Origin: a virus
Lineage: Duplodnaviria; Heunggongvirae; Uroviricota; Caudoviricetes
Length of the DNA stretch: 52,579 bases
Direction: 5' to 3' (one strand)
IMG/VR virus record: IMGVR_UViG_2684622554_000006
Shown: positions 19,819-46,814 of the stretch, one piece after another
Layout: the number at the start of each line of letters is the position of its first letter
How positions within the stretch are numbered: the first letter of the stretch is position 1
Notes under the pieces: generated by a model
Database searches by the model: none
Told to the model about the DNA's origin: nothing
Seen by the model: only the letters and a program-made list of their open reading frames with translations
Program-made: the position numbers and the translations under genes

Positions 19819-20207
19819 GCAACACATTTAAATTCAGCAGCCGGAGCGAAAAGAATTTGCAGGGTGTAAATCCTGATCTGGTGAAAGTGACCCGACGGGC
19901 GCTGGAAATCTCGGAAGTGGATTTTGGTATCACCGAAGGATTGCGCAGTCGTTATCGTCAGAAGCAGCTCGTGACCACAGGCAAGAGCCAGACCATGAAC
20001 AGTCGCCATCTCACAGGGCATGCCGTGGATGTTGTGGCTTATGTCGGCAACCAGGTGTCATGGGAATGGCCGCTGTACGAAAAAATCGCAGCAGCATTCA
20101 GACAGGCCAGCCAGGAACTGAATATTCCGGTGGAATGGGGCGGCGACTGGAAGACCCTGAAAGACGGACCGCATTTTCAGTTACCACACGGAGCCTATCC
20201 GGCATGA
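19815..20207 (+). CDS. Endolysin, peptidase M15 family (L-alanyl-D-glutamate endopeptidase type)
   Basis: 130-aa ORF with an SRHLTGHAVD zinc-binding segment typical of M15/VanY-like phage endolysins; overlaps the holin stop. Confidence 0.8.
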   Translation: MSNTFKFSSRSEKNLQGVNPDLVKVTRRALEISEVDFGITEGLRSRYRQKQLVTTGKSQTMNSRHLTGHAVDVVAYVGNQVSWEWPLYEKIAAAFRQASQELNIPVEWGGDWKTLKDGPHFQLPHGAYPA

Positions 20208-20599
20208 AGCTCTGGCCCACGCTTGGCGTCGCTTTCCTTCTGATTACATCCATGCGTCTGTCGTGGTCGCTGGGCCGGGAGAACGCCAGAAACGAAGCGC
20301 AGGCCAGCACCCTGAAAAGTACCGTCGACACACTGAATATCATCAGCGCCGGGGTACAGGATATGCAGCAGGTGCTGGCTCAGCTCCGCGCGGAAAATCA
20401 GCAACGCAATCAGGACGGAGAGGTAAGACGTGAACAGCTACGCAACGATATTGCAAAAGATGAATGCGCCCACGCTTTGCCTGACGCTCGTTTTACTGAC
20501 AGGTTGCGCAGGCACGCAGAACGCGCCAGGGCCAGCGCCGTCAGTCCGGCTTATACCGCAGACGCTGACCATGCCGGTAACGCCTCCCCCCTTCCCTGA
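20204..20599 (+). CDS. Inner-membrane spanin (Rz/LysB-like)
   Basis: ATG overlaps the endolysin stop; N-terminal TM (MKLWPTLGVAFLLITSM) followed by a coiled-coil-like region. Confidence 0.6.
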   Translation: MKLWPTLGVAFLLITSMRLSWSLGRENARNEAQASTLKSTVDTLNIISAGVQDMQQVLAQLRAENQQRNQDGEVRREQLRNDIAKDECAHALPDARFTDRLRRHAERARASAVSPAYTADADHAGNASPLP

Positions 20600-20741
20600 C
20601 CCACCCACATGGGGAAACCTCGGAATATGGGGCGACCGCCTTCTGGATGCACTGGAAACCTGTAACGCGGATAAACGGGCCATTGCTGAACTGGATAAGA
20701 GAATAGCCGAACTGACACACCAGACGGGAGTAACACAATGA
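20460..20741 (+). CDS. Outer-membrane lipoprotein spanin (Rz1/LysC-like), embedded in the +1 frame of the i-spanin
   Basis: Lipobox LLTGC after a signal-like segment; proline-rich mature part; embedded architecture typical of Rz/Rz1. Confidence 0.6.
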   Translation: MNAPTLCLTLVLLTGCAGTQNAPGPAPSVRLIPQTLTMPVTPPPFPDPPTWGNLGIWGDRLLDALETCNADKRAIAELDKRIAELTHQTGVTQ

Positions 20742-22614
20742 CCAGTAAGAACTTTGCACTGATTACAGCCATGACACAGGCTGAACTGACTCAAAAGGTG
20801 AATGAACATCTTGCGAAAGGGTGGCATCTTCAGGGGAGACGCGGGTTGCCTACGAACCCGGCACCCCGTGGTATCTAATGCAGGCAATGGTGGCCGATGG
20901 CACTACAGACATCTCACCTGATTCCCCCCAGCACGGCAGCGTGCCGGAGTGGTATTACGTGGTGGTACTTGCTGGTCAATCCAATGCCATGTCATATGGT
21001 GAGGGAATGCCGCTGCCGGATTCTTACGATGCGCCCCACCCACGCATTAAGCAACTGGCCCGTCGCAACACAGTGACTCCCGGTGGTAAAGCATGCGCAT
21101 TTAACGACATCATTCCGGCAGACCACTGCCTGCATGATGTTCAGGATATGAGCGCACTGAATCACCCGAATGCAGACCTGAGCAAAGGGCAGTATGGCTG
21201 TGTCGGACAGGGCTTGCATATTGCCAAACGCCTGTTGCCTTACATTCCACAGAATGCCGGGATTTTACTGGTTCCATGCTGTCGTGGTGGTTCGGCATTC
21301 ACCCAGGGCGCGGAGGGGACATTCAGCGAGTCCACAGGAGCCAGTCAGGATTCGGCTCGCTGGGGTGTGGGTAAACCTTTATATCAGGACCTGATTTTGC
21401 GCACGAAGGCCGCATTGCAGAAAAACCCAAAAAACATGCTGCTGGCCGTATGCTGGATGCAGGGCGAATTTGACATGAGCGCCGCTACGTACTCACAGCA
21501 ACCTCCGCTGTTTACGGCCATGCTGAAACAGTTTCGTGCGGACATTACCGAGTTTAACACGCAGTGTCATGGAGGCAGAGCGGCAAGTGTGCCATGGATT
21601 TGTGGTGACACGACGTATTACTGGAAAAACACCTACGGCACGCAGTACGACACCATTTACGGGGCGTACAAAAACAGGGAGAGCGACAACGTTTTCTTTG
21701 TGCCGTTCCTGACCGATGGTAGTGGCAACAATACCTCCACCAACGCACCAACGGAAGATCCGGATGCTGCAAGTGAGGGATATTACGGTTCGGCATCCCG
21801 AACGAACAAAAACTGGGTATCATCAAATCGCCAGACGCATTTCAGCTCATGGGCGCGTCGTGGCATTATTCCCGATCGTATGGCAACCGCTATTCTGAAC
21901 GTAGCCGGTCGCACCTTAGCCTTCATCAGTGGTAAGGCACCGGAAATCAAACCCTCGCCCGGCGGCGACACGCCATCGGGGCCGTCTGAAGATGCATCCG
22001 TACGCACAATCTCCCTGTTGCCGACAGCCGGAGATGCTGCTGCGCAGGGCTGGAGCATTAAGAATGGCGGAATTCAGTTGTCAGAGGGTGTATTTAAGAT
22101 CACCAAGCAGAGCAATAAAGCCTGGTCCCTGACGCGCCCGGTGGATGACGCAGTCTCCCTGCTGACACGGGGTGGCAGACTGAGCTGTAAGTTTCGACTG
22201 TCAGGCGCACTGACCAACAATCAGTTCGGTCTGGGAATTTATCTGTATACCGATGTAGCGTTACCTGACGTCGTGGCGATGACCGGGACTGGTAACCCGT
22301 TCCTGATGTCGTTCTTCACCCAGACCACAGACGGCAAACTGAATCTGATGCATCACAAGAAAGCAGGAAACACAAAGTTGGGCGAGTTCGGGAATTACAG
22401 TAACGACTGGCAGACGCTGGAGCTGGTGTTCACCGCCGGCAGTGCCACGGTTACTCCGAAACTGAATGGAGTGGCTGGCCCGGCATTCCAGGTCATAAAA
22501 GACAGTCTGACACTGGGGCTGAATGCGCTGACGTTAACTGATATCACTAAAAATGCCGCGTACGGCGTCGATATCGGCAGCCTGGTGCTGGAAATCAATA
22601 ATCCCGCAGCATAA
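20741..22614 (+). CDS. DUF1737-SGNH/SASA esterase with C-terminal beta-rich domain (NanS-p-like 9-O-acetyl-sialate esterase candidate); domains separated by a frameshift as given
   Basis: N-terminal MTSKNFALITAMTQAELTQKVNEHLAKGWHLQG (20741-20887) is out of frame with the main ORF 20821-22614, which carries VVVLAGQSNAMSYGEG (GQSN serine block). Copy 2 (33506 onward) reads through this junction, so the break lies in the C-run at 20863-20869. Confidence 0.65.
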
Positions 22615-22637
22615 GGAAGAGCAGGAGAGCAAAACAG

Positions 22638-23104
22638 ATGCTTAAGACAAACAGTCTGCGAGAGTCCATGCTTCATGGGTGTCGGTGGTGCCAGGCTAAT
22701 CCCGAGAAATTCACCATTTTCGTGGAGAGCGGCAACATTGAAACGACCGGAGAAGCGCCCTCGTTTGTTTACCGCTATCAGATGGTGATGTTTGTCATGG
22801 ATTACGCCGGAGAGCTGGACGACCTCACGCTGCCGCTGCTGGCGTGGTTATCCGAAAATCAGCCACAGTTGTTGCTCAATCCGGAGCGTAATCAGGACAT
22901 CAAATTTTCTGCCGTTATCAATGACGATGACAGCGCCGATCTCCTGTTTACGCTCCCCTGCGGGAACGCGTTCGCATCACGCGCAACAGTCAGGGCACAC
23001 CGCAGGCAGAACACCTGCCGGAGCCAAAACCCCGTCTGCCTTCTTCCGAAGGCGACTGGTCGCATGTATTCCAGGATGTGACGTGGGGTGAAAGCGATGG
23101 ATAA
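22638..23104 (+). CDS. R: Tail completion protein (P2 gpR family), C-terminus frameshifted in this copy
   Basis: N-terminal 110 aa are identical to the copy-2 ORF (35468-35851) that continues to ...VTWGESDG; copy 1 has CCCC versus CCCCC at about 22966. Confidence 0.65.
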
Positions 23105-23732
23105 GGCATTCACCCGCGTGGATGAAACCTTTGAGGCTATCCGCGACAGCCTGAATCAGCAGGCCATCAATAACATCGCCAGAAAGCTGGCACAGGATTT
23201 ACGTCGCGCCCAGCAGGCACGTATCCGGTCACAAAAAGCGCCGGACGGGACCGAATGGACACCACGCAGACGCCGCGTAACCCGGATACAGGAGCGCATT
23301 CGCTTTATCTGGAATAACGAAGCACGCACGCTGAAAAACTGGCATCACGACACAGGGAAATACGGGCGAACCATTACCGGGTGGGATGAGGATAAAAACA
23401 ATATCCGCACGTTTTACCGGGATGACATCGACCGTTTTCTGGAAATACGCACCCGGCGCATCAACCAGGACAGCACAAAGCGCGTCCCCATGTTCGTAAA
23501 ACTGCGCACCGCCCGCTACCTGAAAGCCCGTGCAGATGCCTCCGGTGTGACGGTGGGTTACAGCGGCGTGGCCGCACGTATTGCACGCGTTCATCAGTTC
23601 GGTGAGCGCGATCAGGTTGCGCCGGGCATTTTCACCGATTACCCGGTACGTGAGCTGTTGGGTATCAGCCAGGCAGATGAGCGCCTGATTTATAACACGG
23701 TGCTGGGCCGGATTGCGGAGGCTGTACGGTGA
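23097..23732 (+). CDS. S: Tail completion / virion morphogenesis protein (P2 gpS family)
   Basis: ORF overlapping the R stop; position between R and V. Confidence 0.65.
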   Translation: MDKAFTRVDETFEAIRDSLNQQAINNIARKLAQDLRRAQQARIRSQKAPDGTEWTPRRRRVTRIQERIRFIWNNEARTLKNWHHDTGKYGRTITGWDEDKNNIRTFYRDDIDRFLEIRTRRINQDSTKRVPMFVKLRTARYLKARADASGVTVGYSGVAARIARVHQFGERDQVAPGIFTDYPVRELLGISQADERLIYNTVLGRIAEAVR

Positions 23733-24310
23733 GCGCAGAACTCATGCGACTGCTGAGCAACATCATCCGCACCGGGATCATCTCTGAAGTTGATGAGAAG
23801 TCCTGGCGCGTGCGCGTTCGCAGCGGCGAACTGGAAACAGGCTGGTTGCGCTGGAACACCACGCGCGCGGGAGCCTTCAATGTGTGGCTGCCGCCATCAC
23901 CAGGCGAACAGGTGGTAATTGCCTGCATTGGCGGCAACCCGGAAACCGCCATGATAATTGGCAGCCTGTGGAGTGATGCCAGTCCGGCCCCCGGCAAAAG
24001 CCTGAAAGAAATCGTGGTCAGCGCGCCGGATGGCGCGGTGTTCCGCTACGACGCAGACGCTGGCGCACTGAGCGCCAGCGGCATGAAAACAGCCACCCTG
24101 CAGGCATCCGTCAGCGTGACACTGGATACGCCCGTCGTGGAATGCACAAACCTTCTGAGAACGGCGACGCTTGACGTCACAAAAGAGGGAAAGATGAGCG
24201 GCAATATCACGCACAGCGGCGGCAATTTCACCTCAAACGGCATTACCGTGCATACGCATAAGCACGGTGGCGTTAAAGGTGGCAGCGATTCGACAGGAGG
24301 CCCGCAGTGA
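23729..24310 (+). CDS. V: Baseplate assembly/spike protein (P2 gpV family)
   Basis: 193-aa ORF in the gpV position of the V-W-J-I-H-G order. Confidence 0.8.
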   Translation: MSAELMRLLSNIIRTGIISEVDEKSWRVRVRSGELETGWLRWNTTRAGAFNVWLPPSPGEQVVIACIGGNPETAMIIGSLWSDASPAPGKSLKEIVVSAPDGAVFRYDADAGALSASGMKTATLQASVSVTLDTPVVECTNLLRTATLDVTKEGKMSGNITHSGGNFTSNGITVHTHKHGGVKGGSDSTGGPQ

Positions 24311-24657
24311 CAACCCGCTACACAGGAATGAACCCGGACGGGACGGGAAACCTGAACGATATGGAGCACCTGAAACAGTCAGTCAGGGACATCCTGATCA
24401 CCCCGCTGGCAAGCCGGGTTATGCGACGGGAATATGGCAGCCTTGTGCCTGATTTGATTGACGAACCCATGAATAACACCACGCGTCTGCAATGCATGAG
24501 TGCTGCCGTGATTGCGCTGACACGATGGGAACCCCGCATTGCCCTGGACGCCATCGACGTTGTCTGGAAGGCAGGAGGCCGCGCCGGGGTGACGCTGTCG
24601 GGCACTGTCATGCAGACCATGCAGAATGTTGAATTAACCATCACGCTGAGAGAGTAA
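24307..24657 (+). CDS. W: Baseplate wedge protein (P2 gpW, gp25-like)
   Basis: 116-aa ORF (GTG start) overlapping the V stop; size matches gpW. Confidence 0.8.
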   Translation: MTTRYTGMNPDGTGNLNDMEHLKQSVRDILITPLASRVMRREYGSLVPDLIDEPMNNTTRLQCMSAAVIALTRWEPRIALDAIDVVWKAGGRAGVTLSGTVMQTMQNVELTITLRE

Positions 24658-24660
24658 ATC

Positions 24661-25557
24661 ATGCCTGCTGTTGATCTTTCCCAGTTACCGGAACCCGCCA
24701 TCATCGCGGAGCCTGATTTTGAGGCAATTCTGGCTGACACAAAGGCCATGATGATTGCGTCCTATCCTGCCGAACAGCGTGAAGCCGTCTCCGCCGCGCT
24801 GGAGCTGGAATCAGAACCCCTGAACGTTATCGCTCAAACCATGTCGTTTCGTGAAATGCTGTTACGCCAGCGGGTTAACGAGGGCGCACGCGCCTGCATG
24901 TTAAGCCACGGTTCAGGGACAAACCTGGACAACCTCGCGGGCAATATGAACACAAAGCGCCTGGTTATCACTCCGGCAACGGATACCACCGACGCGGTGA
25001 TGGAGAGCGACACCTCGCTGAGACTGCGGGCGCAGCGGGCGTATGACGGCCTGAGTGTTGCTGGCCCGTCAGGTGCATACGAGTATTTTGCACGCAGCGC
25101 CAGCGGTCTGGTGCGTGATGCGCGGGCCATCAGCCCGTCTCCGGCCTGTGTGACGGTTTCCATTCTGTCCACTGAAGGCGACGGCACAGCAACGGAGGCG
25201 TTGCTTAATACCGTTCGCGCCGTTCTGAATGCAGAGGATACCCGCCCGGTGGCCGACCGACTGACCGTACAGAGCGCCAGCATCGTGACATGGCGGCTGA
25301 ATGCAAAACTGTACTTTTACCCCGGCCCGGAATCCGAACCTATTCTGGCTGCGGCTGAATCGTCGTTCAGGAAGTGGCTGGCTGAGCAGGGGCTTATTGG
25401 TCAGGACGTGGCGTTGTCAGCCATTGCTGCCGCACTTCATGTGCACGGCGTGCAACGCGTGGAGATAATCGAACCCACACAGAATATGGCCATCAGCGAC
25501 ATACAGGCGGCGCGCTGTGAGTCATTCACCATCAGCGAAGGTGGGCGTAATGAGTAA
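24661..25557 (+). CDS. J: Baseplate protein J (P2 gpJ family)
   Basis: 298-aa ORF; position and size match gpJ. Confidence 0.85.
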   Translation: MPAVDLSQLPEPAIIAEPDFEAILADTKAMMIASYPAEQREAVSAALELESEPLNVIAQTMSFREMLLRQRVNEGARACMLSHGSGTNLDNLAGNMNTKRLVITPATDTTDAVMESDTSLRLRAQRAYDGLSVAGPSGAYEYFARSASGLVRDARAISPSPACVTVSILSTEGDGTATEALLNTVRAVLNAEDTRPVADRLTVQSASIVTWRLNAKLYFYPGPESEPILAAAESSFRKWLAEQGLIGQDVALSAIAAALHVHGVQRVEIIEPTQNMAISDIQAARCESFTISEGGRNE

Positions 25558-26080
25558 TTCACTGTTACCGCCATCAGCCAGCAATTTCATGCGTTGCGCC
25601 GAAGCTGTCGGAGCGCGCATTACAGACATCCCGGTAGACCTCAACACGCTGTGGTCACCGGACACCTGCCCGGTGCATCTGCTGCCTTATCTCGCCTGGG
25701 CATTTTCCGTTGACCGCTGGGATCGCAACTGGCCGGAAGAGACAAAGCGACAGGTGATTCGTGATGCATGGCTGATACACCGACACAAAGGGACCATCAG
25801 CGCACTGCGCCGGGCCATTGAGCCGCTGGGATACCTCATTCGCGTGTCTGAGTGGTGGGAGTTCGGCGGAGAACCGGGAACATTTACCGTTGAAGTCGGC
25901 ACGCTGGACAGTGGCGTGACGGAGGAAATGTATCTGGAAATGGAGCGGTTGATTGCTGATGCCCGCCCGGTCAGCCGCCACATGACAGGGCTGAATATCA
26001 TTCAGGAGATTCAGGGAGATATTTTCGCGGCGGCAGCAACTTACGACGGCGAAGTCATTACCATTTATCCGGACGATTAA
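25550..26080 (+). CDS. I: Baseplate/tail protein I (P2 gpI family)
   Basis: ATG at 25550 gives 176 aa, matching gpI; overlaps the J stop. Confidence 0.8.
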   Translation: MSNSLLPPSASNFMRCAEAVGARITDIPVDLNTLWSPDTCPVHLLPYLAWAFSVDRWDRNWPEETKRQVIRDAWLIHRHKGTISALRRAIEPLGYLIRVSEWWEFGGEPGTFTVEVGTLDSGVTEEMYLEMERLIADARPVSRHMTGLNIIQEIQGDIFAAAATYDGEVITIYPDD

Positions 26081-26082
26081 GC

Positions 26083-28056
26083 ATGAGTACCACAACACGT
26101 AAATTTAAAACCGTTATCACCGATACGGGTGCCAAAAAATTAGCTCAGGCAGCCGCGCCAGATGGTAAGCCTGTCCGCCTGACTCATATGGCCGTGGGCG
26201 ACGGTGGCGGCACGTTGCCCACACCAGACAGTAAGCAGACCCGTCTGGTGCATGAGGTGTGGCGACATACTGTTAATCGCGTCATCCTGGACGCAACACA
26301 TCAGAACCGCATTATTGCGGAGCTGGTTATTCCTCCTGAAACGGGCGGATTCTGGATCCGGGAAATTGGTGTATTTGATGAGCACGGCGATTTAATCGCG
26401 GTGGGCAATACTGCCGAAAGTTACAAGCCAGCCGTTGCCGAAGGGTCCGGTCGTGCACAAACATTTCGCACCATTCTGACCGTATCCAGCACTGCCACCG
26501 TGGTGCTTACCGTGGATAACACCATGGTGATGGCCACAGTGGATTACGTGGATGACAAACTGAAAGAGCATGAACAGTCACGACGTCACCCGGACGCCTC
26601 GCTGACCGCAAAAGGCTTTGTTCAACTCAGTAGCGCCACTAACAGCGTGTCTGAAACGCAGGCTGCAACGCCGAAAGCAGTAAAGGCCGCGTATGACCTT
26701 GCTAACGGTAAATATACTGCGCAGGATGCCAGCACGACGCGAAAAGGCCTTGTCCAGCTCAGTAGCGCCACCAACAGCACGTCTGAAACGCAGGCTGCAA
26801 CGCCGAAAGCAGTAAAGGCCGCGTATGACCTTGCTAACGCAAAATATACCGCTCAGGACGCCACGACGGCACAAAAAGGGATAGTCCAGCTCAGTAGTGC
26901 CACCAACAGCACGTCTGAAACACTGGCCGCGACATCGAAAGCTGTTAAGGCGGTAATGGATGAAACGAACAAGAAAGCGCCCTTAAATAGTCCTGCACTG
27001 ACCGGAACGCCAACAACACCAACTGCGCGACAGGGAACGAATAATACCCAAATCGCAAGCACGGCTTTCGTTATGGCTGCGATTGCCGCCTTGTAGATTC
27101 GTCACCTGATGCACTGAACACGCTGAACGAGCTGGCTGCGGCGCTGGGCAACGACCCGAATTTTGCGACCACCATGACTAACGCGCTTGCGGGTAAGCAA
27201 CCGAAAGATGCCACCCTGACGGCGCTGGCCGGACTTACTACTGCGGCAGGCAAGTTTCCGTATTTTACGGGGAATGATGTCGCCAGCCTGCAACCCTGAC
27301 AAAAGTCGGGCGGGATATTCTTGCGAAATCGACCGTTGCTGCCGTTATCGAATACCTCGGTTTACGAGAACTCGGCACAAGCGGGGAGAAAATACCGTTA
27401 CTCAGTACAGCGAATACCTGGACCAATCGACAAACATTCAGCGGTGGCCTTTCTGGGGAACTGTCCGGCAATGCCGCTACTGCAACAAAGCTGAAAACAG
27501 CACGAAAATTGCTGGAGTGGTTTTGATGGTTCTAGCGATATTTCAATTAGTGCCAAAAATGTCAATGCATTTGCACTCCGACAAACAGGTAATACTGTTA
27601 ATGGTGATACATCCGTTGGATGGAATTGGGATAGTGGTGCATATAACGCATGATTGGTGGTGCATCTGCATTAATTCTTCACTTTAATATAATGCTGGTA
27701 GCTGTCCTGCGTACAATTCCGTGTGAATTATAAAAATGGTGGATTTCCTACAGGTCGGCTCGTGATGGTTATGGGTTTGAATTGGTTGGTCAGATTTCTA
27801 TACCACGACACGAAAACCTTCAGCGGGAGATGTTGGTGCATATACGCGGACAGAATGTAACTCAAGGTTTATTACAGGTATTCGCCTTGGCGGTCTGTAT
27901 CTGTTCAGACATGGAATGGTCCCGGCTGGTCTGACAGGTCAGGTTATGTCGTTACGGGTTCAGTTAACGGAAACCGTGATGAATTAATTGATACAACACA
28001 GGCAAGGCCAATTCAGTATTGCATTAATGGACGTGGTATAACGCGGGGAGTATTTA
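26083..28056 (+). CDS. H: Tail fibre protein H: conserved N-terminal part plus invertible C-terminal host-range part; interrupted by frameshifts as given
   Basis: N-terminal 337 aa intact (26083-27096) with three [25 protein letters not shown] repeats; a premature TAG at 27094 is caused by GCCGCCTTG versus GCCGCCCTTG in copy 2; the reading frame continues in other frames to the stop at 28054-28056. Confidence 0.7.
27345..27370. promoter_or_regulatory. Left crossover site of the invertible segment (gix/cix-like, inside H)
   Basis: TTATCGAATACCTCGGTTTACGAGAA is the inverted counterpart of the right site; 17 bp are shared, including the ACC-GA-GGT core. Confidence 0.65.
27355..27460. repeat. 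Left arm of a ~105-bp inverted repeat flanking the invertible tail-fibre segment
   Basis: The reverse complement of 29982-30088 matches 27355-27460 almost base for base (compared by eye). Confidence 0.7.
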
Positions 28057-28058
28057 AC

Positions 28059-28594: not shown

Positions 28595-28622
28595 GACAAG
28601 GCCCGATAACGGGCCTTAATTT

Positions 28623-29150: not shown

Positions 29151-29154
29151 ATTA

Positions 29155-30065: not shown

Positions 30066-30088
30066 GCTTGTGCCGAGTTCTCGTAAAC
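29982..30088. repeat. Right arm of the ~105-bp inverted repeat
   Basis: Reverse complement matches 27355-27460. Confidence 0.7.
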
Positions 30089-30103
30089 CGAGGTTTTAAA
30101 TAA
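30078..30103. promoter_or_regulatory. Right crossover site (gix/cix-like)
   Basis: TTCTCGTAAACCGAGGTTTTAAATAA matches the gix consensus TTCCTGTAAACCGAGGTTTTGGATAA at about 22 of 26 positions (from memory). Confidence 0.7.
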
Positions 30104-35854: not shown

Positions 35855-38814
35855 ATTCACCCGCGTGGATGAAACCTTGAGGCTATCCGCGACAGCTGAA
35901 TCAGCAGGCCATCAATAACATCGCCAGAAAGCTGGCACAGGATTTACGTCGCGCCCAGCAGGCACGTATCCGGTCACAAAAAGCGCCGGACGGGACCGAA
36001 TGGACACCACGCAGACGCCGCGTAACCCGGATACAGGAGCGCATTCGCTTTATCTGGAATAACGAAGCACGCACGCTGAAAAACTGGCATCACGACACAG
36101 GGAAATACGGGCGAACCATTACCGGGTGGGATGAGGATAAAAACAATATCCGCACGTTTTACCGGGATGACATCGACCGTTTTCTGGAAATACGCACCCG
36201 GCGCATCAACCAGGACAGCACAAAGCGCGTCCCATGTTCGTAAAACTGCGCACCGCCCGCTACCTGAAAGCCCGTGCAGATGCCTCCGGTGTGACGGTGG
36301 GTTACAGCGGCGTGGCGCACGTATTGCACGCGTTCATCAGTTCGGTGAGCGCGATCAGGTTGCGCGGGCATTTTCACCGATTACCCGGTACGTGAGCTGT
36401 TGGGTATCAGCCAGGCAGATGAGCGCCTGATTTATAACACGGTGCTGGGCCGGATTGCGGAGGCTGTACGGTGAGCGCAGAACTCATGCGACTGCTGAGC
36501 AACATCATCCGCACCGGGATCATCTCTGAAGTTGATGAGAAGTCCTGGCGCGTGCGCGTTCGCAGCGGCGAACTGGAAACAGGCTGGTTGCGCTGGAACA
36601 CCACGCGCGCGGGAGCCTTCAATGTGTGGCTGCGCCATCACCAGGCGAACAGGTGGTAATTGCCTGCATTGGCGGCAACCCGGAAACCGCCATGATAATT
36701 GGCAGCCTGTGGAGTGATGCCAGTCCGGCCCCGGCAAAAGCCTGAAAGAAATCGTGGTCAGCGCGCCGGATGGCGCGGTGTTCCGCTACGACGCAGACGC
36801 TGGCGCACTGAGCGCCAGCGGCATGAAAACAGCCACCCTGCAGGCATCCGTCAGCGTGACACTGGATACGCCCGTCGTGGAATGCACAAACCTTCTGAGA
36901 ACGGCGACGCTTGACGTCACAAAAGAGGGAAAGATGAGCGGCAATATCACGCACAGCGGCGGCAATTTCACCTCAAACGGCATTACCGTGCATACGCATA
37001 AGCACGGTGGCGTTAAAGGTGGCAGCGATTCGACAGGAGGCCGCAGTGACAACCCGCTACACAGGAATGAACCCGGACGGGACGGGAAACCTGAACGATA
37101 TGGAGCACCTGAAACAGTCAGTCAGGGACATCCTGATCACCCCGCTGGCAAGCCGGGTTATGCGACGGGAATATGGCAGCCTTGTGCCTGATTTGATTGA
37201 CGAACCCATGAATAACACCACGCGTCTGCAATGCATGAGTGCTGCCGTGATTGCGCTGACACGATGGGAACCCCGCATTGCCCTGGACGCCATCGACGTT
37301 GTCTGGAAGGCAGGAGGCCGCGCCGGGGTGACGCTGTCGGGCACTGTCATGCAGACCATGCAGAATGTTGAATTAACCATCACGCTGAGAGAGTAAATCA
37401 TGCCTGCTGTTGATCTTTCCAGTTACCGGAACCGCCATCATCGCGGAGCCTGATTTTGAGGCAATTCTGGCTGACACAAAGGCCATGATGATTGCGTCCT
37501 ATCCTGCCGAACAGCGTGAAGCCGTCTCCGCGCGCTGGAGCTGGAATCAGAACCCCTGAACGTTATCGCTCAAACCATGTCGTTTTCGTGAAATGCTGTT
37601 ACGCCAGCGGGTTAACGAGGGCGCACGCGCCTGCATGTTAAGCACGGTTCAGGGACAAACCTGGACAACCTCGCGGCAATATGAACACAAAGCGCCTGGT
37701 TATCACTCCGGCAACGGATACCACCGACGCGGTGATGGAGAGCGACACCTCGCTGAGACTGCGGGCGCAGCGGGCGTATGACGGCCTGAGTGTTGCTGGC
37801 CCGTCAGGTGCATACGAGTATTTTGCACGCAGCGCCAGCGGTCTGGTGCGTGATGCGCGGGCCATCAGCCCGTCTCCGGCCTGTGTGACGGTTTCCATTC
37901 TGTCCACTGAAGGCGACGGCACAGCAACGGAGGCGTTGCTTAATACCGTTCGCGCCGTTCTGAATGCAGAGGATACCCGCCCGGTGGCCGACCGACTGAC
38001 CGTACAGAGCGCCAGCATCGTGACATGGCGGCTGAATGCAAAACTGTACTTTTACCCCGGCCCGGAATCCGAACCTATTCTGGCTGCGGCTGAATCGTCG
38101 TTCAGGAAGTGGCTGGCTGAGCAGGGGCTTATTGGTCAGGACGTGGCGTTGTCAGCCATTGCTGCCGCACTTCATGTGCACGGCGTGCAACGCGTGGAGA
38201 TAATCGAACCCACACAGAATATGGCCATCAGCGACATACAGGCGGCGCGCTGTGAGTCATTCACCATCAGCGAAGGTGGGCGTAATGAGTAATTCACTGT
38301 TACCGCCATCAGCCAGCAATTTCATGCGTTGCGCCGAAGCTGTCGGAGCGCGCATTACAGACATCCCGGTAGACCTCAACACGCTGTGGTCACCGGACAC
38401 CTGCCCGGTGCATCTGCTGCCTTATCTCGCCTGGGCATTTTCCGTTGACCGCTGGGATCGCAACTGGCCGGAAGAGACAAAGCGACAGGTGATTCGTGAT
38501 GCATGGCTGATACACCGACACAAAGGGACCATCAGCGCACTGCGCCGGGCCATTGAGCCGCTGGGATACCTCATTCGCGTGTCTGAGTGGTGGGAGTTCG
38601 GCGGAGAACCGGGAACATTTACCGTTGAAGTCGGCACGCTGGACAGTGGCGTGACGGAGGAAATGTATCTGGAAATGGAGCGGTTGATTGCTGATGCCCG
38701 CCCGGTCAGCCGCCACATGACAGGGCTGAATATCATTCAGGAGATTCAGGGAGATATTTCGCGGCGGCAGCAACTTACGACGGCGAAGTCATTACCATTT
38801 ATCCGGACGATTAA
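35855..38814 (+). pseudogene. Copy-2 S-V-W-J-I block, several frameshifts
   Basis: Track ORFs 36471-36659, 36754-37191, 37007-37396, 37681-38292 and 38252-38836 are collinear with the copy-1 S, V, W, J and I genes. Confidence 0.55.
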
Positions 38815-38816
38815 GC

Positions 38817-40793
38817 ATGAGTACCACAACACGTAAATTTAAAACCGTTATCACCGATACGGGTGCCAAAAAATTAGCTCAGGCAGCCGCGCCAGATGGT
38901 AAGCCTGTCCGCCTGACTCATATGGCCGTGGGCGACGGTGGCGGCACGTTGCCACACCAGACAGTAAGCAGACCCGTCTGGTGCATGAGGTGTGGCGACA
39001 TACTGTTAATCGCGTCATCCTGGACGCAACACATCAGAACCGCATTATTGCGGAGCTGGTTATTCCTCCTGAAACGGGCGGATTCTGGATCCGGGAAATT
39101 GGTGTATTTGATGAGCACGGCGATTTAATCGCGGTGGCAATACTGCCGAAAGTTACAAGCCAGCCGTTGCCGAAGGGTCCGGTCGTGCACAAACATTTCG
39201 CACCATTCTGACCGTATCCAGCACTGCCACCGTGGTGCTTACCGTGGATAACACCATGGTGATGGCCACAGTGGATTACGTGGATGACAAACTGAAAGAG
39301 CATGAACAGTCACGACGTCACCCGGACGCCTCGCTGACCGCAAAAGGCTTTGTTCAACTCAGTAGCGCCACTAACAGCGTGTCTGAAACGCAGGCTGCAA
39401 CGCCGAAAGCAGTAAAGGCCGCGTATGACCTTGCTAACGGTAAATATACTGCGCAGGATGCCAGCACGACGCGAAAAGGCCTTGTCCAGCTCAGTAGCGC
39501 CACCAACAGCACGTCTGAAACGCAGGCTGCAACGCCGAAAGCAGTAAAGGCCGCGTATGACCTTGCTAACGCAAAATATACCGCTCAGGACGCCACGACG
39601 GCACAAAAAGGGATAGTCCAGCTCAGTAGTGCCACCAACAGCACGTCTGAAACACTGGCCGCGACATCGAAAGCTGTTAAGGCGGTAATGGATGAAACGA
39701 ACAAGAAAGCGCCCTTAAATAGTCCTGCACTGACCGGAACGCCAACAACACCAACTGCGCGACAGGGAACGAATAATACCCAAATCGCAAGCACGGCTTT
39801 CGTTATGGCTGCGATTGCCGCCCTTGTAGATTCGTCACCTGATGCACTGAACACGCTGAACGAGCTGGCTGCGGCGCTGGGCAACGACCCGAATTTTGCG
39901 ACCACCATGACTAACGCGCTTGCGGGTAAGCAACCGAAAGATGCCACCCTGACGGCGCTGGCCGGACTTACTACTGCGGCAGGCAAGTTTCCGTATTTTA
40001 CGGGAATGATGTCGCCAGCCTGGCAACCCTGACAAAAGTCGGGCGGGATATTCTTGCGAAATCGACCGTTGCTGCCGTTATCGAATACCTCGGTTTACGA
40101 GAACTCGGCACAAGCGGGGAGAAAATACCGTTACTCAGTACAGCGAATACTGGACAATCGACAAACATTCAGCGGTGGCCTTTCTGGGGAACTGTCCGGC
40201 AATGCCGCTACTGCACAAAGCTGAAAACAGCACGAAAAATTGCTGAGTTGGTTTTGATGGTTCTAGCGATATTTCAATTAGTGCAAAAATGTCAATGCAT
40301 TTGCACTCCGACAAACAGGTAATACTGTTAATGGTGATACATCCGTTGGATGGAATTGGGATAGTGGTGCATATAACGCCATGATTGGTGGTGCATCTGC
40401 ATTAATTCTTCACTTTAATATAAATGCTGGTAGCTGTCCTGCCGTACAATTCCGTGTGAATTATAAAAATGGTGGCATTTCCTACAGGTCGGCTCGTGAT
40501 GGTTATGGTTTGAATTAGGTTGGTCAGATTTCTATACCACGACACGAAAACCTTCAGCGGGAGATGTTGGTGCATATACGCGGACAGAATGTAACTCAAG
40601 GTTTATTACAGGTATTCGCCTTGGCGGTCTGTCATCTGTTCAGACATGGAATGGTCCCGGCTGGTCTGACAGGTCAGGTTATGTCGTTACGGGTTCAGTT
40701 AACGGAAACCGTGATGAATTAATTGATACAACACAGGCAAGGCCAATTCAGTATTGCATTAATGGGACGTGGTATAACGCGGGGAGTATTTAA
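38817..40793 (+). pseudogene. Copy-2 tail fibre H (frameshifted), including left gix-like site at about 40078-40103
   Basis: Track ORFs 38817-39128 and 39232-40032; copy 2 reads through the position of the copy-1 premature stop ([25 protein letters not shown]...). Confidence 0.55.
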
Positions 40794-40795
40794 CG

Positions 40796-41327
40796 ATGAT
40801 GCACTTAAAAAACATTACTGCTGGCAACCCTAAAACAAAAGAGCAATACCAGCTAACAAAGCAATTTAACATCAAATGGCTTTATTCAGCTGATGGAAAA
40901 AACTGGTATGAGGAACAAAAGAATTTCCAGCCAGACACTTTGAAAATGGTCTATGACCATAACGGCGTTATTATTTGTATTGAAAAGGATGTTTCAGCAA
41001 TTAATCCGGAAGGCGCAAGCGTCGTTGAATTACCTGATATTACAGCAAATCGCCGGGCTGATATTTCGGGGAAATGGATGTTCAAAGATGGCGTAGTGGT
41101 AAAGCGAACTTATACCGAGGAAGAGCAGAGGCAACAAGCGGAAAATGAAAAGCAGAGCCTGTTGCAACTTGTCAGGGATAAAACTCAGCTATGGGACTCA
41201 CAGCTACGGCTGGGCATCATTTCCGACGAGAATAAACAAAAATTAACCGAGTGGATGCTCTATGCGCAGAAAGTCGAATCCACAGACACTCCAGCCTGCC
41301 AGTAACATTTCCCGAACAACCTGAATG
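40796..41327 (+). CDS. Copy-2 tail fibre assembly chaperone (Tfa); frame intact for 169 aa, C-terminal few residues shifted
   Basis: Track ORF 40796-41305. Confidence 0.6.
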
Positions 41328-41354
41328 AGACAAGGCCCGATAACGGCCTTAATT

Positions 41355-42793
41355 TTATTCAGGCTTTTGTGGCCATTCAGGATTTGCCGTATCCACACGG
41401 TTGACCAGAACACTGTAGCGTTCCATGCTTCAGTCGTGTGCGTTCTCGTCTGTTGCATATTCAGCCTGACAGCGCGTTCCAGCGGCTGGATGACTGATTC
41501 AGTTCGGAAAGCAATGCGGCCTTTTGTGATTCGGCCTGTTGTTGCTGTTCGTCAGCCGTATAAATCCGTTTAACCACAGCTCCGTCTTAAACATCCACTT
41601 ACCGGAATCATCGGTCCGACGATTGGCGTTATATCGGAACCTCGACGACGCTAAAACCTTCGGATTAAGCGTGGAGGCATCTCTGGTGATGGCGACAATA
41701 ATATTATTTTCATCGTAAACAATCTTTATGGTGTCTGGCTGAAAGTTTTTCACTTCCTCATACCAGTTTTTTCCGTCCTCAGAGTAAAGCCAGATAACTC
41801 CGTGTTTCTTTGTTAACTCATACTGTTCAGTGTTTTAGCATTACCCGCTTTTATGTTCTTTAAGTGCATCATATTAAACGCTCGCTACATTATACCAGGT
41901 GCATTTATATACTTTTGAACGGGTCTGTAATAAACACCCGCTATATTATCGGCAGAGTTAGACCTGTATCCTGAACATTAATACAGACAATACATGACCT
42001 GAAGGGCACTGGAAATTCCATGTTCGCCAGTTGTTCACTCCATAATATTGCTGTGAACCAAGTCGAACATCTTTCACATAACGGGAATCAAAGTTACCGT
42101 AATCCGAGGGATTAACACGCCCGTAATATTTATGGTCTTATTACTTTGAATGCTTCCGGGAACAAAGCGCATAACATGGACGTAATTAGCATAAACATCC
42201 AGATTACCATCGCCATTTTGTTTAAAGCCCGTGTCATTATCACCAATACAATCGAATTACGCCAAGAGCACTGGATGTTCGATACCAGTGCACCATTCAG
42301 TTGACCACCAGATAACGGCAGTGCACCAACATCTCCTGCTGAAGGTTTTCTGGTGGTGGTGTAAAATTCGGACAGTCGGCTTCAAAACCATAACCATCAC
42401 GGGCTGAACGATAAAAATACCGCCATTTTTATAATTAATCCGAAACTGAGCTGCAGGACAACTTCCGTCTCCATATAAAAATGAATAATTAACGTTGATG
42501 CACCACCAATATTTGCGTTATAGGCTCCGCTACTCCAGTTCCATCCAACTGCTTTATCATTCGCAACGGTGCTTCCTGTTTTCCTAAGGCAAACGCACAA
42601 CATGACTTGCTTTTAATGTGATATCGGAGGAACCATCAAAAGCCACATTGCTTATTTTCCTGCAGTTTTTAATTTTGCAGCTGTAGAAGCATTGCCGGAT
42701 AGTTCACCAGAAAGGCCACCGCTGAATGTTTGTCGATTAGTCCAGGTATTCGCTGTACTGAGTAACGGTATTTTCTCCCCGCTTGTGCCGAGT
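41355..42793 (-). pseudogene. Copy-2 Tfa' and alternative fibre cassette (frameshifted), up to the right gix-like site at about 42794-42819
   Basis: Collinear with 28623-30103 of copy 1; only short track ORFs remain. Confidence 0.5.
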
Positions 42794-42872
42794 TCTCGTA
42801 AACCGAGGTTTTAAATAATGGCCGTTTCTGGCCTGCATGGCATGATTTGCGCTTTTGGACGGGAGATTCAGT

Positions 42873-43471
42873 GTGCTGATTGGCTATGTAAGGGTATCAA
42901 CAAATGACCAGAATACAGACCTGCAACGAAACGCTCTTGTTTGTGCAGGATGTGAACAAATATTTGAAGATAAATTAAGCGGGACAAAGACAGACCGACC
43001 GGGATTAAAACGCGCTTTAAAGCGCCTTCAAAAAGGTGACACGCTGGTTGTCTGGAAACTGGATCGCCTCGGGCGAAGCATGAAACATCTGATTTCTCTC
43101 GTCGGGGAACTACGGGAGCGAGGGATTAATTTTCGCAGTCTGACCGACAGCATAGACACATCTTCTCCAATGGGGCGTTTTTTCTTCCACGTGATGGGTG
43201 CCCTGGCTGAAATGGAACGTGAATTAATTGTTGAACGTACACTGGCCGGCTGGCGGCAGCGCGCGCAAGGGGGCGCACAGGCGGACGTCGACCGAAGCTG
43301 ACAAAAGAACAGCATGAGCAAATAGCAAGGCTAATCAAAAACGGGCACGACAGAAAACAACTGGCAATAATTTACGGCATTGGCACATCGACGATTTATC
43401 GTTATCACCCTGTAGGCGATATACAGACTGAAGAAACAACCGGGCAGACTCAGGAAAATGAAAACCGCTAA
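42873..43471 (+). pseudogene. Copy-2 Pin-family invertase (frameshift at about 43250)
   Basis: Track ORF 42855-43301 carries the catalytic N-terminal 140 aa; C-terminal HTH is in another frame; stop at 43469-43471. Confidence 0.6.
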
Positions 43472-43499
43472 TCTGACCATTAGCGGTTTTTGTGTTAAA

Positions 43500-43994
43500 T
43501 CAGAACAGCCCTTTAACTGAACTGGCCGCGCTGTTAAGAGATGATGTCACCTTATCTTTGAAGCCGGACAGCATATCACTGAACGATGAGGATTGCAGGC
43601 GCTCCCGCAAATCCTCATCACAGCGTTCAAGAGTCAGTGAAAATTCTATCTTTTTCGCCTTACCGTAGCGATCAAACTCGGAGCGGGTCGTATTCGTTTC
43701 AGTCAGGACATACATGCCGTAAATCTGCCCGACGCCATCAATCAAAGGCCAGGGTCGTCCTGTATACGCCTGCGTGGTCAGCAGCGACAGCGACACTTCG
43801 CCACCTGTAATTTCAGGATAAAGCACACCAGAAAGAACGATGCGATCATCACCTGCACCGATATACTGCCAGCTTGCTGAACGGTTAACGCGTTCATTTT
43901 TCACATGCCGCCAGCTTTTGTTTTGCTGTAACTGCTGATGCGGCAGCGTGCGCAGCTCAAAAACAAACATGCCGTAGATCATCATCATGGCCAT
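43500..43994 (-). CDS. U: Tail protein U (P2 gpU family), copy 2, apparently intact (164 aa)
   Basis: ORF whose start overlaps the T stop. Confidence 0.75.
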   Translation of the reverse strand: MAMMMIYGMFVFELRTLPHQQLQQNKSWRHVKNERVNRSASWQYIGAGDDRIVLSGVLYPEITGGEVSLSLLTTQAYTGRPWPLIDGVGQIYGMYVLTETNTTRSEFDRYGKAKKIEFSLTLERCDEDLRERLQSSSFSDMLSGFKDKVTSSLNSAASSVKGLF

Positions 43995-46814
43995 GACTCC
44001 TCAATCTTTATCGTAAAAACTGCCACGCCCGGCACGGGCGCGCCGTTCCATTTCTGCCCTGACCATTTCACCGACCAGTTTCGCCAGTTCGCGGGATTCT
44101 GCGTAACAACGTTATGCAGATGAACATGAATTTCACCACCAAATCCGGAGGCAACAGGCTCCCGGTTACGGGAAGTTACAGGAACTGATGCCACTGGAGA
44201 TCGTATAGCCTCCGCCACCGGGCGGGAGCTGGCCGCAACAACAGGGACCAGCGCCGGAGGCAGCGGAGCCGGGACCACGGGTGTGATATTAATTGCGGGG
44301 GCAGGCTTACTGACCTGCGCAATCTTCCGCTCCTGCCACTCCCCACGAACAGCAAGTGCTCGGGGCAGGTTTTTAAAGACAATATCGCCGGGGCCAATGC
44401 GTTTTTTCGTCTCCTCAACCAGCTTACCTGTGTTATCAGCAATTTTGCTGAGTCTGCGCAGCGTACCGGTATTGCTGTCTGTGAGCGGTTTATTGTCTTT
44501 GGGGTTATCACCTCCGGTGCCATTGCCATTTTCCACAGGCTTCGGCGGATTGATTTTCGCCAGGTCCCCCTGAAGCAAGGCAACCTTGTCCTGAAGAATG
44601 GCCGCACGCTGTGCGTCTTCGATTTTCTTGCGCGCCCTTTCCGCTTCATCCGGAAGCACACCAAGCTTTTCAAGTATCCACGCCAGCGTATCCAGCAACA
44701 TTTTTGCAGGTGTCAGAACAAGTTGTAACGCACCGCCAAGAACGTTACCGAATATCTCGCCAGCACTGGTACATTTATCCAGAGTTTCCTTGCTGGACTC
44801 CATCGGAGACAGCAGCGATTTAAACCAGTTAAACACCTGGCTGATCCCACTCCCGATTGCGTCAAAAACAGGACCAAACCGTTCAAAGGTTTCGCGCAAC
44901 GGGGTCAGCCTTTCCATAATCCCGCTGAACACCCCGGCAAAAAATGCCCTGATGGGATCCCAGTATTTCCAGATGAGAACGGCAGCTCCGGCAAGCGCAG
45001 CCACGATAAGGCCGACCGGACTGAACAACGCCCCGATAGCGCCCCCAGTAACGAAACGGAACCCGTCACCATTCCCCATAGTGCTGGCAGGAGTCTGACA
45101 GCATTCATTGAACCGGTCAGGAGGGAAAAGCCAAGACGCAGTTTTGCCAGCGGGCCAGCAAGCACACCAATAGCCAGCGACAACGAGCCAACCGTTGCAG
45201 TCATTGCCAGCAACGCACCGCCTGCTATCAGTAGCTGGCGCGTCAGTACCGGATGGGCCTGCGCCAGCGAGGTGATTTTTTCAAGCACCCGCGTGAGCCA
45301 CTGCGTGACAGAACGCAGCGGACCGTCAACCAGATCACTGATGCGAATACGAAGACCTTCCCATGCGCTGTCGAGATTTTTCAGGTCCCCATCAAGATTA
45401 TCGGCCATTACTTTTGCAACGCGATCGGCCTCTCCCTTGCCCCCTGCAATTCTCTGGTCAGTTTTTGCAGCTCTCCTGAACCAGCCGCCGCAACAAGCGT
45501 CTGCAAACCAACGAACGCCTCTTCTCCGGCGATGTCCTTGAAGAAGGAAACCTGGTCCACCTGTCCGTATTTTTGTGTCGCCTTATAGAGATCAAGCAGC
45601 ACATCCTCCATCGGGCGCATTTTGCCTCTGGCGTCAGCAACTGACACCCCCAGCTCTTTCAGCGCATCAGCCGCAGCTTTTGGCGGTGATGCAAGGCGGG
45701 ACAGACTTGCGCGCATGGCCGTACCAGCATCGCTTCCACGAAGACCATTATTGGCAAGCATCCCGGCCATGGCTGCCGCTTCTTCAAGACTGATACCAAG
45801 TTTTGCGGCAACCGGACCGGTATACTTCATGGTTTCGCCCAGCGCGCGTAAATCAGTATTGGTCCGGGTGAATGCCGCTGTCAGCGTATCGCCAACCCGG
45901 TCCATTTGATCGGCTGTCAGGTTGAACTGTGTGAGGATATTGGAGCCTATATCAGCCGTCTCGCCGAGTTCGACGCCACCTGCCAGCGCCATATTAAGAA
46001 CACCGGGCAATGCGGCCTGAATGGCCTGCGGAGTAAAACCAGCCATTGCCAGAAAGCTCTGCCCACTGGCGGCATCACTCGCAGTAAACTGTGTTTCAGA
46101 GCCAAGTTTTAACGCCTGCTCACGCAGCGCCTTAAACTGCGGGCTGTTTTTGTCGATTCGCGTCAGCGCCTGAACGCGGGACATCTCTTTGCCGAACCCG
46201 ATCGCGGGCTGCAAAAAACGCCCGGCAGCATAGCCGCCCGCCGCTGCCGCACCAATTGCCAGCGCACCACCTGTTTTCAGTTTTCCCGCGGTTTCCTGCG
46301 CGCGCGAATACCGCTCACGAGCCTGCGTTACACGCGCAAGCGCCTGCCGTTCGCGTTCAAGCTGGTTGTTGTATTGTTCGGTGCGTCTGATGGCCTGCTG
46401 GATGGTGTTATCGCTGCCTGTCAGGGAAATGCCGTGGCGTTTCAGTTCTCCGCCAAGCTCCCGCATTTTCTGAATTTCCCGTGTGCGCGATTCATTCAGG
46501 CGTTCAAGCCGGGTGCTTAACTGCTGCATCAGCTTTTGTTGTTTTTCGCTGAGCACTGTACCCGTGCGTTGTAACTGATTAAGGGCGTTAAGCTGGCGTC
46601 GTGCTTTCACGATACCCGCATCCGCTTTACTGACAGCGTCGCGGGCGCGCTCAAATGAACGCGCCTGACGCTCGAGATTTTTGATCGCCCCCTGCGTTCG
46701 CTGAATGGAGTCACCAAACTGCCCCATCAGGCGGCGGGCGTTTTCGGCAGGCCGGGTCAGCCTGTCAACGGCGCTGAAAGCGACCCGGATGTCAAGAGTC
46801 TTCATTATCTGCAT
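43985..46814 (-). CDS. T: Tail tape-measure protein T; split as given by an in-frame TAA at 45408-45410 and a frameshift near 45075
   Basis: N-terminal tape-measure core (...GETMKYTGPVAAKLGISLEEAAAMAGMLANNGLRG...) in 45408-46841; continues as MADNLDGDLKNLDSAWEG...; one extra A in the A4 run at 45411-45414 would restore a continuous ...QKVMADNLDG... frame. Start codon uncertain (46805, 46814 or a GTG at 46841). Confidence 0.75.

Follow-up and report, generated by a model that had tools for sequence, protein, structure and literature searches.

The 12.8-kb tandem duplication in a P2-like Escherichia coli prophage record is almost certainly an assembly artefact

Introduction

The stretch of DNA analysed here (the window, 52,579 nucleotides) holds a P2-like E. 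coli prophage in which 12.8 kb is present twice in tandem. Such an arrangement could be a genuine duplication, which would leave the prophage with two sets of tail genes and two invertible segments, or it could have been created during assembly. A preliminary description of the window had taken it to be a probable artefact of assembly or sequencing, with errors like those of an unpolished long-read consensus. In the present analysis that proposal was supported by three features of the sequence, namely 0 substitutions between the copies, deletions that depend on homopolymers, and a blunt join that is unique to this window.

Results

Extent and gene content of the duplicated unit

Aligned with itself by blastn, the window gave a match of copy 2 to copy 1 that spanned 12,821 columns at 98.97% identity and contained no mismatches, but 131 gap openings (132 gap columns). 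The tandem copies described earlier (19905-32691 and 32692-45416) were therefore recovered, with the end of copy 2 corrected to 45414. In the clean reference, the unit is 12,817 nt long. The main features are as follows.

19905 to 32691, unstranded: copy 1, 12,787 nt, from the middle of the M15 endolysin gene to the middle of the tape-measure gene T; equals 18501-31317 of the reference locus L001
32692 to 45414, unstranded: copy 2, 12,723 nt, with 0 mismatches to copy 1 and to the reference
19815 to 20207, plus strand: intact M15 endolysin gene, inside which the duplication begins at 19905
44001 to 46805, minus strand: full-length T, formed by copy 2 and the right flank, with 3 homopolymer deletions
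32691 to 32692, unstranded: novel join, at which the interior of T (L001 31317) abuts the interior of the endolysin gene (L001 18501)

The second endolysin copy is 5'-truncated and starts at the join (32692), while copy 1 is closed there by a T fragment that has the 3' part only (about 31285-32691). A 203-aa fragment of J begins at an internal ATG, and for this reason it is not specific to the assembly.

Single-copy relatives of the prophage

The window matches a P2/P88-like prophage that ST131-type genomes of E. coli carry as a single copy next to serS; strain AR_0086 (NZ_CP032201.1 4142038-4180328) was used as the reference. Over the 38.5 kb compared, the AR_0086 prophage is identical to the window base for base apart from indels, and it has the same gene order, insertion site and orientation of the invertible segment. 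The unit was found in one piece in 173 of 5,426 complete E. coli genomes (AR_0086 and 172 others), none of which carries the join. In an independent NCBI assembly, the same prophage forms a stand-alone contig of 16.5 kb with 38 indels and 3 mismatches, and this contig ends inside the invertible segment. The records of two sister assemblies, Ecol_AZ153 and Ecol_AZ162, start inside the prophage exactly on gene starts, which probably reflects a start-fixing convention rather than contig breaks.

The invertible tail-fibre segment

Each copy of the unit contains an invertible segment with a recombinase gene beside it.

27345 to 30103, unstranded: invertible segment of copy 1, with the variable C-terminal end of H, G, G' and H'
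27345 to 27370 (plus) and 30078 to 30103 (minus): 26-bp crossover sites of copy 1, inverted
40078 to 42818, unstranded: invertible segment of copy 2, with sites at 40078-40103 (plus) and 42793-42818 (minus)
30159 to 30756, plus strand: serine recombinase (DNA invertase) gene of copy 1, broken by 4 indels
42873 to 43471, plus strand: serine recombinase (DNA invertase) gene of copy 2, broken by 1 indel

The crossover sites, TTATCGAATACCTCGGTTTACGAGAA and TTATTTAAAACCTCGGTTTACGAGAA, are inverted relative to each other, and the two segments have the same orientation. In the reference, the segment is annotated with a recombinase, two genes for tail-fibre assembly and a partial second fibre gene; the recombinase CDS is WP_000905061.1 ('recombinase family protein'), and its homologue in locus L009 has Resolvase and HTH_7 domains. 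When the segment was flipped in silico, the resulting junction matched complete genomes with 100% identity over 1,500 nt (e.g., NZ_CP023844.1 and NZ_CP013835.1), and the assembled orientation was found with 100% identity in other complete genomes. The occurrence of both orientations indicated that the switch is active in this lineage. A recombinase beside inverted sites of about 26 bp, alternative fibre ends with chaperones, and both orientations in nature are the marks of a Gin/Cin/Pin/Hin-type system. The layout is the same as in the Mu G, P1 C and e14 P segments, in which the recombinase likewise adjoins a segment bounded by inverted 26-bp sites, with alternative C-terminal fibre parts and chaperones in opposite orientations. 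The difference is that here the switch is a bystander and not the mechanism of the duplication, and the apparent second switch in the window belongs to the artefact.

The two copies differ by indels only

All 131 differences between the copies were indels, 130 of them 1 nt and one 2 nt long, with no substitution among them, which confirmed by pairwise alignment what the preliminary description had stated. An old duplication diverged by evolution was rejected on these figures. Copy 2 lacked the base in 97 events and copy 1 in 34; most indels lay within runs of 2-3 identical bases, and C was the affected base in 85. Against AR_0086, the window showed 147 indels (137 deletions) and 0 substitutions over the wide stretch of 38.5 kb, and a separate comparison of its first 1.4 kb with the reference gave 1 mismatch. 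Copy 1 differed from the reference by 40 indels, 36 of them in 27341-32691, and copy 2 by 104, of which 101 fell in 32692-42822; mismatches were absent from both. The indel-ridden contig L010 has a balanced spectrum of insertions and deletions, whereas that of the window is deletion-dominant and C-biased.

Six deletions relative to the reference are common to both copies, including the T-gene deletion at reference position 29994. The T-gene deletions at reference positions 31337 and 30944 recur in independent sequencing-run assemblies, and a 465-aa T fragment had matches in three unrelated assemblies of this kind with the same homopolymer deletions, which is evidence for systematic error.

Two defects reported earlier for copy 1 were both found. 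The premature stop in H (27094-27096) is caused by the deletion of a C at 27089; as far as the stop, the frameshift leaves the protein unchanged, since CTT and TTG are both Leu codons. The extra T in pin (about 30291) is a true insertion relative to the reference, and a second extra T lies at 30136. The 337-aa truncated H matched only a contig from a short-read metagenome, which by chance stops at the same codon, and a broken G of 169 aa is not on record.

The join is blunt and was found in no other genome

The sequence runs ...GGCCATTACTTT up to the join and GAAATCTCGG... from it; copy 1 is preceded by G and copy 2 is followed by T. Since the boundary sequences share no base, the microhomology, previously put at 1 bp or less, is exactly 0 bp and the join is blunt. 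As one piece, the join occurred in 0 of 5,426 complete E. coli genomes and had 0 matches in three collections of viral, genome and metagenome contigs, and two ORFs that span it are not on record. The boundaries of the unit are free of internal repeats, with the 132-nt repeats in H and the inverted repeats of the switch sitting elsewhere. A genuine duplication is expected to show repeats or microhomology at its end points, copies of normal quality and a join that is also present in relatives; here the end points had 0 bases in common, the sequence around the join was the poorest in the window, and relatives lacked the join.

Homologous recombination between internal repeats was rejected, as no repeat is present at the unit boundaries. 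An invertase-made duplication was also rejected, because the nearest crossover sites are 2.6 kb and 7.4 kb away from the join and because this family of invertases inverts between inverted sites without duplicating.

Errors cluster in a block around the join

For the distribution of errors, A1 denotes the first 7.4 kb of copy 1, B2 the last 2.6 kb of copy 2, inv1 and inv2 the invertible segments of copies 1 and 2, and A2 and B1 the counterparts of A1 and B2 in the other copy. Left of the join, there were 0.05 errors/kb in the left flank, 0.54 in A1, 7.6 in inv1 and 5.8 in B1; right of it, there were 9.2 in A2, 12.0 in inv2, 1.2 in B2 and 0.28 in the right flank. The flanks, A1 and B2 were near-perfect (0.05-1.2 errors/kb), and most errors fell in one block.

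27089 to 43248, unstranded: error-laden (low-support) block, about 6-12 errors/kb, with 135 of the 147 indels relative to the reference

On the left, the block reaches 256 nt beyond the left crossover site of copy 1, and on the right it extends 430 nt past the right crossover site of copy 2. Since the sequence outside this 16-kb block centred on the join is clean, the low read support would be located at the join itself. The earlier picture of an unpolished long-read consensus thus applies within the block, while the rest of the window is essentially perfect. Likewise, a divergence of about 3% in copy 2 holds near the join (16 errors in 32692-33191), compared with a mean of 1.0% for the unit. 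The claim that neither copy is clean held for the invertible segment, which is damaged in both; otherwise, the clean parts are copy 1 as far as about 27.0 kb and copy 2 beyond about 43.3 kb.

Within the copy-2 block, the deletion rate at C runs was 0.3% at length 1, 8.5% at length 2, 26% at length 3, 50% at length 4 and 75% at length 5 or more. The deletions were biased by strand, with C:G ratios of 50:10 in A2 and 24:6 in inv2, suggesting few reads, mostly of one strand. Such C-biased homopolymer deletions on one strand point to very low read depth. Most of the C-deletion contexts, inspected by eye, were not CCWGG (the Dcm methylation site).

A real clonal tandem duplication would give an oversized defective prophage with two switches, in which the indels were polishing failures from ambiguous mapping. 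Polishing is indeed harder in repeats, and but for the indels the copies are identical, as they would be after a very recent event. Ambiguous mapping, however, should leave all 25.5 kb equally unpolished, whereas A1 and A2, which are equivalent in sequence, had 4 and 68 errors (binomial p = 5e-16), and B2 and B1 had 3 and 15. A uniform 'unpolished repeat' was rejected, given that A1 and B2 are clean. Reads across a real clonal join would also map uniquely and at full depth, whereas sequence quality in this window is at its lowest around the join. In addition, homologous recombination would make a repeat of such length unstable, and the prophage would measure about 51 kb instead of about 38 kb, above the related P2/P88-like phage genomes (31-37 kb). 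We therefore regard a clonal duplication as extremely unlikely.

Tandem duplications arise spontaneously in bacterial cultures, and a real sub-clonal duplication, made by illegitimate joining, captured by a few reads and kept as a path by the assembler, would also produce an error peak through low support for the join. Spontaneous duplications normally use repeats or microhomologies, but this join has neither, and it is present in no related genome or public contig. An assembler would normally take the majority single-copy path, and a sub-clonal duplication does not predict that the edges of the dirty block lie at the inversion sites instead of the duplication boundaries. This explanation is very unlikely in our view.

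The shape of the error profile bears on another alternative. Rightward from the join, the errors per 500 nt were 16, 8, 12, 7, 6, 1, 2, 4, 2 and so on, down to 0-2 (Spearman -0.81, p = 4e-4); on the left, from 27.2 to 32.7 kb, the rate was raised but flat at about 0.6%, without a rise towards the join. Two fragments of this locus could have been fused, in library preparation or in silico, into a single chimeric long read; had the assembly been led through that read, its layout would cross the region twice, and the sequence flanking the join would in essence be a one-read consensus. This would account for the blunt join without homology, for the strand-biased C deletions that suggest very few reads of one strand, and for the flat rate on the left, and the dirty extensions beside the join (5.6 kb and 10.6 kb) are typical read lengths. 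A single read should nevertheless carry uniform errors, while the rate right of the join decays about 10-fold over 3 kb. The spectra of inv1 (7 A/T and 11 C/G deletions, 3 insertions) and inv2 (3 A/T and 30 C/G deletions, 0 insertions) also differ despite the same underlying sequence. Moreover, 0 substitutions in about 16 kb is unlike a raw or lightly corrected single read, and assemblers usually discard chimeric reads or break at them. We consider a chimeric read an unlikely, though not far-fetched, source of the join.

Discussion

Our analysis suggested that the duplication is very probably an artefact of some kind. A real duplication, clonal or sub-clonal, is decidedly unlikely; it would combine blunt illegitimate joining, a defective oversized prophage, two active switches and low read support. 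As to the mechanism, we think it reasonably likely that overlapping contig ends of low depth were concatenated untrimmed, after a break that resulted from inversion heterogeneity. The true genome would then have the 12.8-kb stretch once, as in the relatives. A long-read assembler would have yielded two contig ends, both running through this region, which may have belonged to a single circular chromosome contig or to two neighbouring contigs. One contig would stop at 32691 and the other begin at 32692, and joining them head to tail with the 12.8-kb overlap left untrimmed would generate a tandem repeat whose blunt join has no biological meaning. At the ends of a contig, where reads are few, homopolymer deletions would persist in the consensus, while the parts of each copy contiguous with the unique flanks would be well covered and thus clean. 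Flipping of the tail-fibre segment in culture is the probable reason for a break at this place: with reads of two conflicting orientations, well-supported sequence would stop at the crossover sites, beyond which each contig end would be carried through the invertible segment by a few reads only.

Copies that differ only by consensus errors (0 substitutions, 131 indels) and a homology-free join absent from other genomes are what untrimmed contig-end overlap predicts, and the decay of errors rightward from the join is as expected at a contig start. On the other hand, the flat error rate left of the join speaks against such an overlap; the internal position needs a rotation of the record or the merging of two contigs, and errors in both copies of the segment need the further assumption that reads of the assembled orientation were scarce. 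Given its place in the prophage, inclusion of the invertible segment in the duplication is unsurprising (about 40% by chance), and the one argument for a causal link to the switch is that the edges of the dirty block coincide with crossover sites.

The closest known case is that of untrimmed start/end overlaps in circular long-read assemblies (Hunt et al. 2015, Circlator, PMC4699355; Wick & Holt, PMC6966772). There, as here, kilobase-long near-identical copies differ only by consensus errors, the sequence beside the join is poor, the join bears no biological signature, and the length of the overlap is within the range of long reads. The copies in those assemblies normally lie at the two ends of a record, whereas here they are contiguous inside the window, and only to the right of the join do the errors show a clear gradient.

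The duplication is almost certainly not a real feature of this prophage but a product of assembly, and the value of the finding lies in quality control only. If it were real after all, a prophage made defective and carrying two switches would be no more than a modest curiosity. The source assembly overstates the prophage by 12.8 kb, and about 25 tail and lysis genes appear in it as frameshifted or duplicated pseudogenes, which would mislead surveys of prophage size, gene copy number, pseudogenes and invertible elements. The spatial pattern of indel errors can by itself locate a false join without the reads. The window also offers a worked example of how assemblies of long reads can break at phase-variable (invertible) segments and be left there with redundant ends of low quality.

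Structure of the duplication and uniqueness of its join

When the window was compared with itself, copy 2 (32692-45414; 12,723 nt) aligned to copy 1 (19905-32691; 12,787 nt) over 12,821 columns with 0 mismatches and with 131 gap openings that take up 132 columns. Such result confirmed the tandem duplication reported in the preliminary description, although its second copy ends at 45414 and not at 45416. Single-base events made up 130 of the 131 indels, and most were found in runs of 2-3 identical bases; copy 2 lacked the base in 97 and copy 1 in 34, and it was a C in 85. The mean divergence of the copies was 1.0%, so that the 3% proposed earlier holds locally, within a few hundred bases to the right of the join, but not for the whole unit. 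The sequence at the join (32691/32692) reads ...GGCCATTACTTT on its left and GAAATCTCGG... on its right. Since G precedes copy 1 and T follows copy 2, microhomology is zero, within the earlier limit of 1 bp. The premature stop in H at 27094, caused by a C deletion at 27089, was found as described, as was the additional T of copy 1 near 30290.

Among 5,426 complete E. coli genomes, none matched in one piece a 1-kb query with the join at its centre, and 1,382 records matched one or both halves separately. The exact 40-mer across the join was absent from viral, genome and metagenome contig collections, and no join-spanning ORFs were on record. The duplicated unit was matched in one piece at 99.7% in 173 of the 5,426 genomes, and more distantly by P2/P88-like phages.

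The unit in a single-copy P2-like prophage

In E. coli AR_0086 (NZ_CP032201.1), whose locus L001 served as single-copy reference, the unit is part of a P2-like prophage of ~38 kb, which runs from integrase to ogr and hok and adjoins serS.

Features of the duplicated unit
L001 18501 to 31317: unit boundaries, inside the M15 endolysin gene and inside the tape-measure gene T
Between these boundaries: lysis genes, DUF6645 gene, R, S, V, W, J, I (tail and baseplate), tail fibre H, invertible segment with alternative fibre ends and chaperones, serine recombinase, U
Window 27345-30103 and 40078-42818, L001 25945-28718: invertible segment, a Gin/Pin-type tail-fibre inversion switch with 26-bp crossover sites

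Window 1406-32691 aligned to L001 1-31317 with 0 mismatches and 41 gaps, and window 32692-52579 to L001 18501-38484 with 0 mismatches and 106 gaps, while window 1-1600 showed 1 mismatch and no gap. Over ~40 kb of unique sequence, one substitution was thus found against 147 indels, namely 137 deletions (94 C, 27 G) and 10 insertions; this is not the pattern of real divergence.

Several other features of the prophage were observed. Rfam matches above the gathering score to isrK (5155-5229, +, 65 bits) and C4 antisense RNA (5265-5352, +, 83 bits) lie in its early region. Genes annotated as ParM, a plasmid segregation protein (8983-9942), and as a partitioning/stability protein (about 9947-10261; together L001 7578-8856) directly follow the replication endonuclease gene. 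Tail gene R and the lysis cassette are separated by a 625-aa gene (20738-22614; L001 19334-21211), which combines SASA (sialate O-acetylesterase-like) with DUF6645 domains and looks like cargo and not a core P2 gene. The constant part of H holds 2.6 tandem copies, 86% alike, of a 132-nt (44-codon) unit (26610-26951 and 39342-39683), and the right end, between ogr and serS, has a Hok/Gef family toxin gene (about 50841-50981; L001 36746-36886). Two sister complete genomes, left out of the argument on the join, have their record origin inside the same prophage, NZ_CP019000.1 (Ecol_AZ153; positions 1 and 4998584) exactly at the sheath gene start and NZ_CP019015.1 (Ecol_AZ162), by arithmetic, at about the major capsid gene start, which probably reflects a start-fixing convention.

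Errors are concentrated around the join

The placement of the errors is the most informative result of the analysis.

Error rates along the window (A, inv and B: left part, invertible segment and right part of copy 1 or 2)
Left flank: 0.05 errors/kb
A1, 19905-27340: 0.54 errors/kb
inv1, 27341-30107: 7.6 errors/kb
B1, 30108-32691: 5.8 errors/kb
A2, 32692-40073: 9.2 errors/kb
inv2, 40074-42822: 12.0 errors/kb
B2, 42823-45414: 1.2 errors/kb
Right flank: 0.28 errors/kb

Over the same 7.4 kb, copy 2 had 68 errors where copy 1 had 4 (binomial p = 5e-16). Because errors are confined mainly to a block at 27089-43248, the path from the left flank through A1 and from B2 into the right flank matches the rest of the assembly in quality, and it is the added sequence around the join that is poor. 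This contradicts a real duplication carried clonally: a real join would be spanned by uniquely mapping reads and so have been polished, but the join is the worst place, and an effect of ambiguous mapping would not have left A1 and B2 clean.

Rightward from the join, errors per 500 nt were 16, 8, 12, 7, 6, 1, 2, 4, 2, 6, 0, 0... (Spearman -0.81), with a second bump further on inside the invertible segment; leftward, the rate was flat at ~0.6% back to 27.2 kb. A chimeric read threaded into the assembly is a possible source of the join and agrees with the flat left side, but it fits neither the gradient on the right nor the differing error spectra of inv1 and inv2.

Errors are of long-read type, with probable low depth superimposed

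In the copy-2 block, base loss from C runs rose with run length from 0.3% (1) through 8.5% (2), 26% (3) and 50% (4) to 75% (5 or more), while G runs were several-fold less affected and those of A and T almost spared. Deletions of C and G numbered 50:10 in A2 (p = 2e-7) and 24:6 in inv2 (p = 1e-3); on the + strand of 32692-42822, 74 C and 16 G deletions were counted, even 2-nt C runs being hit (8.5%). A consensus of many reads from both strands is expected to be symmetric in C and G errors, so this asymmetry points to a block built from very few reads, mostly of a single strand.

Outside the block, six of seven errors fell within 5-6-nt G/C homopolymers and the remaining one within a four-G run. 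Single-base deletions in such 5-6-nt homopolymers at window 19483, 45042, 45434 and 47702 (L001 18078, 30944, 31337, 33606) disrupt gpX, tape measure T and tube FII. Reference positions 31337, 30944 and 33606 were also deleted in unrelated assemblies from three independent sequencing runs (L006-L008), and are therefore recurrent long-read miscalls, not mutations; L006 had further homopolymer deletions on the host side, beyond the prophage. Over 11 kb, no indel was present in L005, a metagenome contig of this prophage assembled from short reads. Together, this recurrence and the indel-free contig show that the background errors are systematic long-read homopolymer miscalls, upon which errors of probable low depth are superimposed within the block.

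The invertible segment and the origin of the join

The block extends beyond the outermost crossover sites (27345-27370 and 42793-42818) by 256 and 430 nt, respectively. The inverted repeats of the segment span about 500 nt and are 78% identical, rising to 95% over the outer 77 nt; they terminate in the 26-bp sites TTATCGAATACCTCGGTTTACGAGAA and TTATTTAAAACCTCGGTTTACGAGAA, which we take to resemble crossover sites of the Hin/Gin/Cin/Pin family. The junction flipped in silico matched complete genomes, e.g. NZ_CP023844.1 and NZ_CP013835.1, at 100% identity over 1,500 nt, and the assembled orientation was found, likewise at 100% identity, in other complete E. coli genomes. The presence of both orientations indicates, from genome comparison, that the switch is active in this lineage, and cultures are likely mixed for it.

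An independent NCBI assembly, GCA_900448955.1, shows that long-read assemblies stumble at this locus: the same prophage lies on a stand-alone contig of 16,518 nt (UGCD01000001.1; 3 mismatches and 38 indels over 14.5 kb), which terminates inside the invertible segment at reference 28031. The short-read gut-metagenome contig L005 (ENA ERZ921960, k127_9647) has its end at H codon 337, ~250 nt short of the crossover site; the frameshift in the window truncates H at the same codon, which seems a coincidence.

The most economical account would be that two contig ends with a 12.8-kb overlap were joined untrimmed. A few reads may have carried each end through the invertible segment, which would fit the read-like length of the error-laden extensions, 5.6 kb to the left of the join and 10.6 kb to the right. 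The stop of well-supported sequence at the crossover sites may be due to reads of the opposite orientation, which cannot align past them. A rare sub-clonal duplication taken up by the assembler is conceivable; that some or all cells carry the duplication is quite improbable. The artefact proposed in the preliminary description is supported and sharpened, and the duplication is not a real biological feature.

Copy 1 has intact genes from the endolysin through I, save DUF6645 and R, which have single homopolymer deletions; copy 2 retains only W and U intact. Neither copy has an unbroken H, G, H' or invertase gene. The significance of the finding is limited to assembly quality control, and the broken genes in the window are not evidence of prophage decay.
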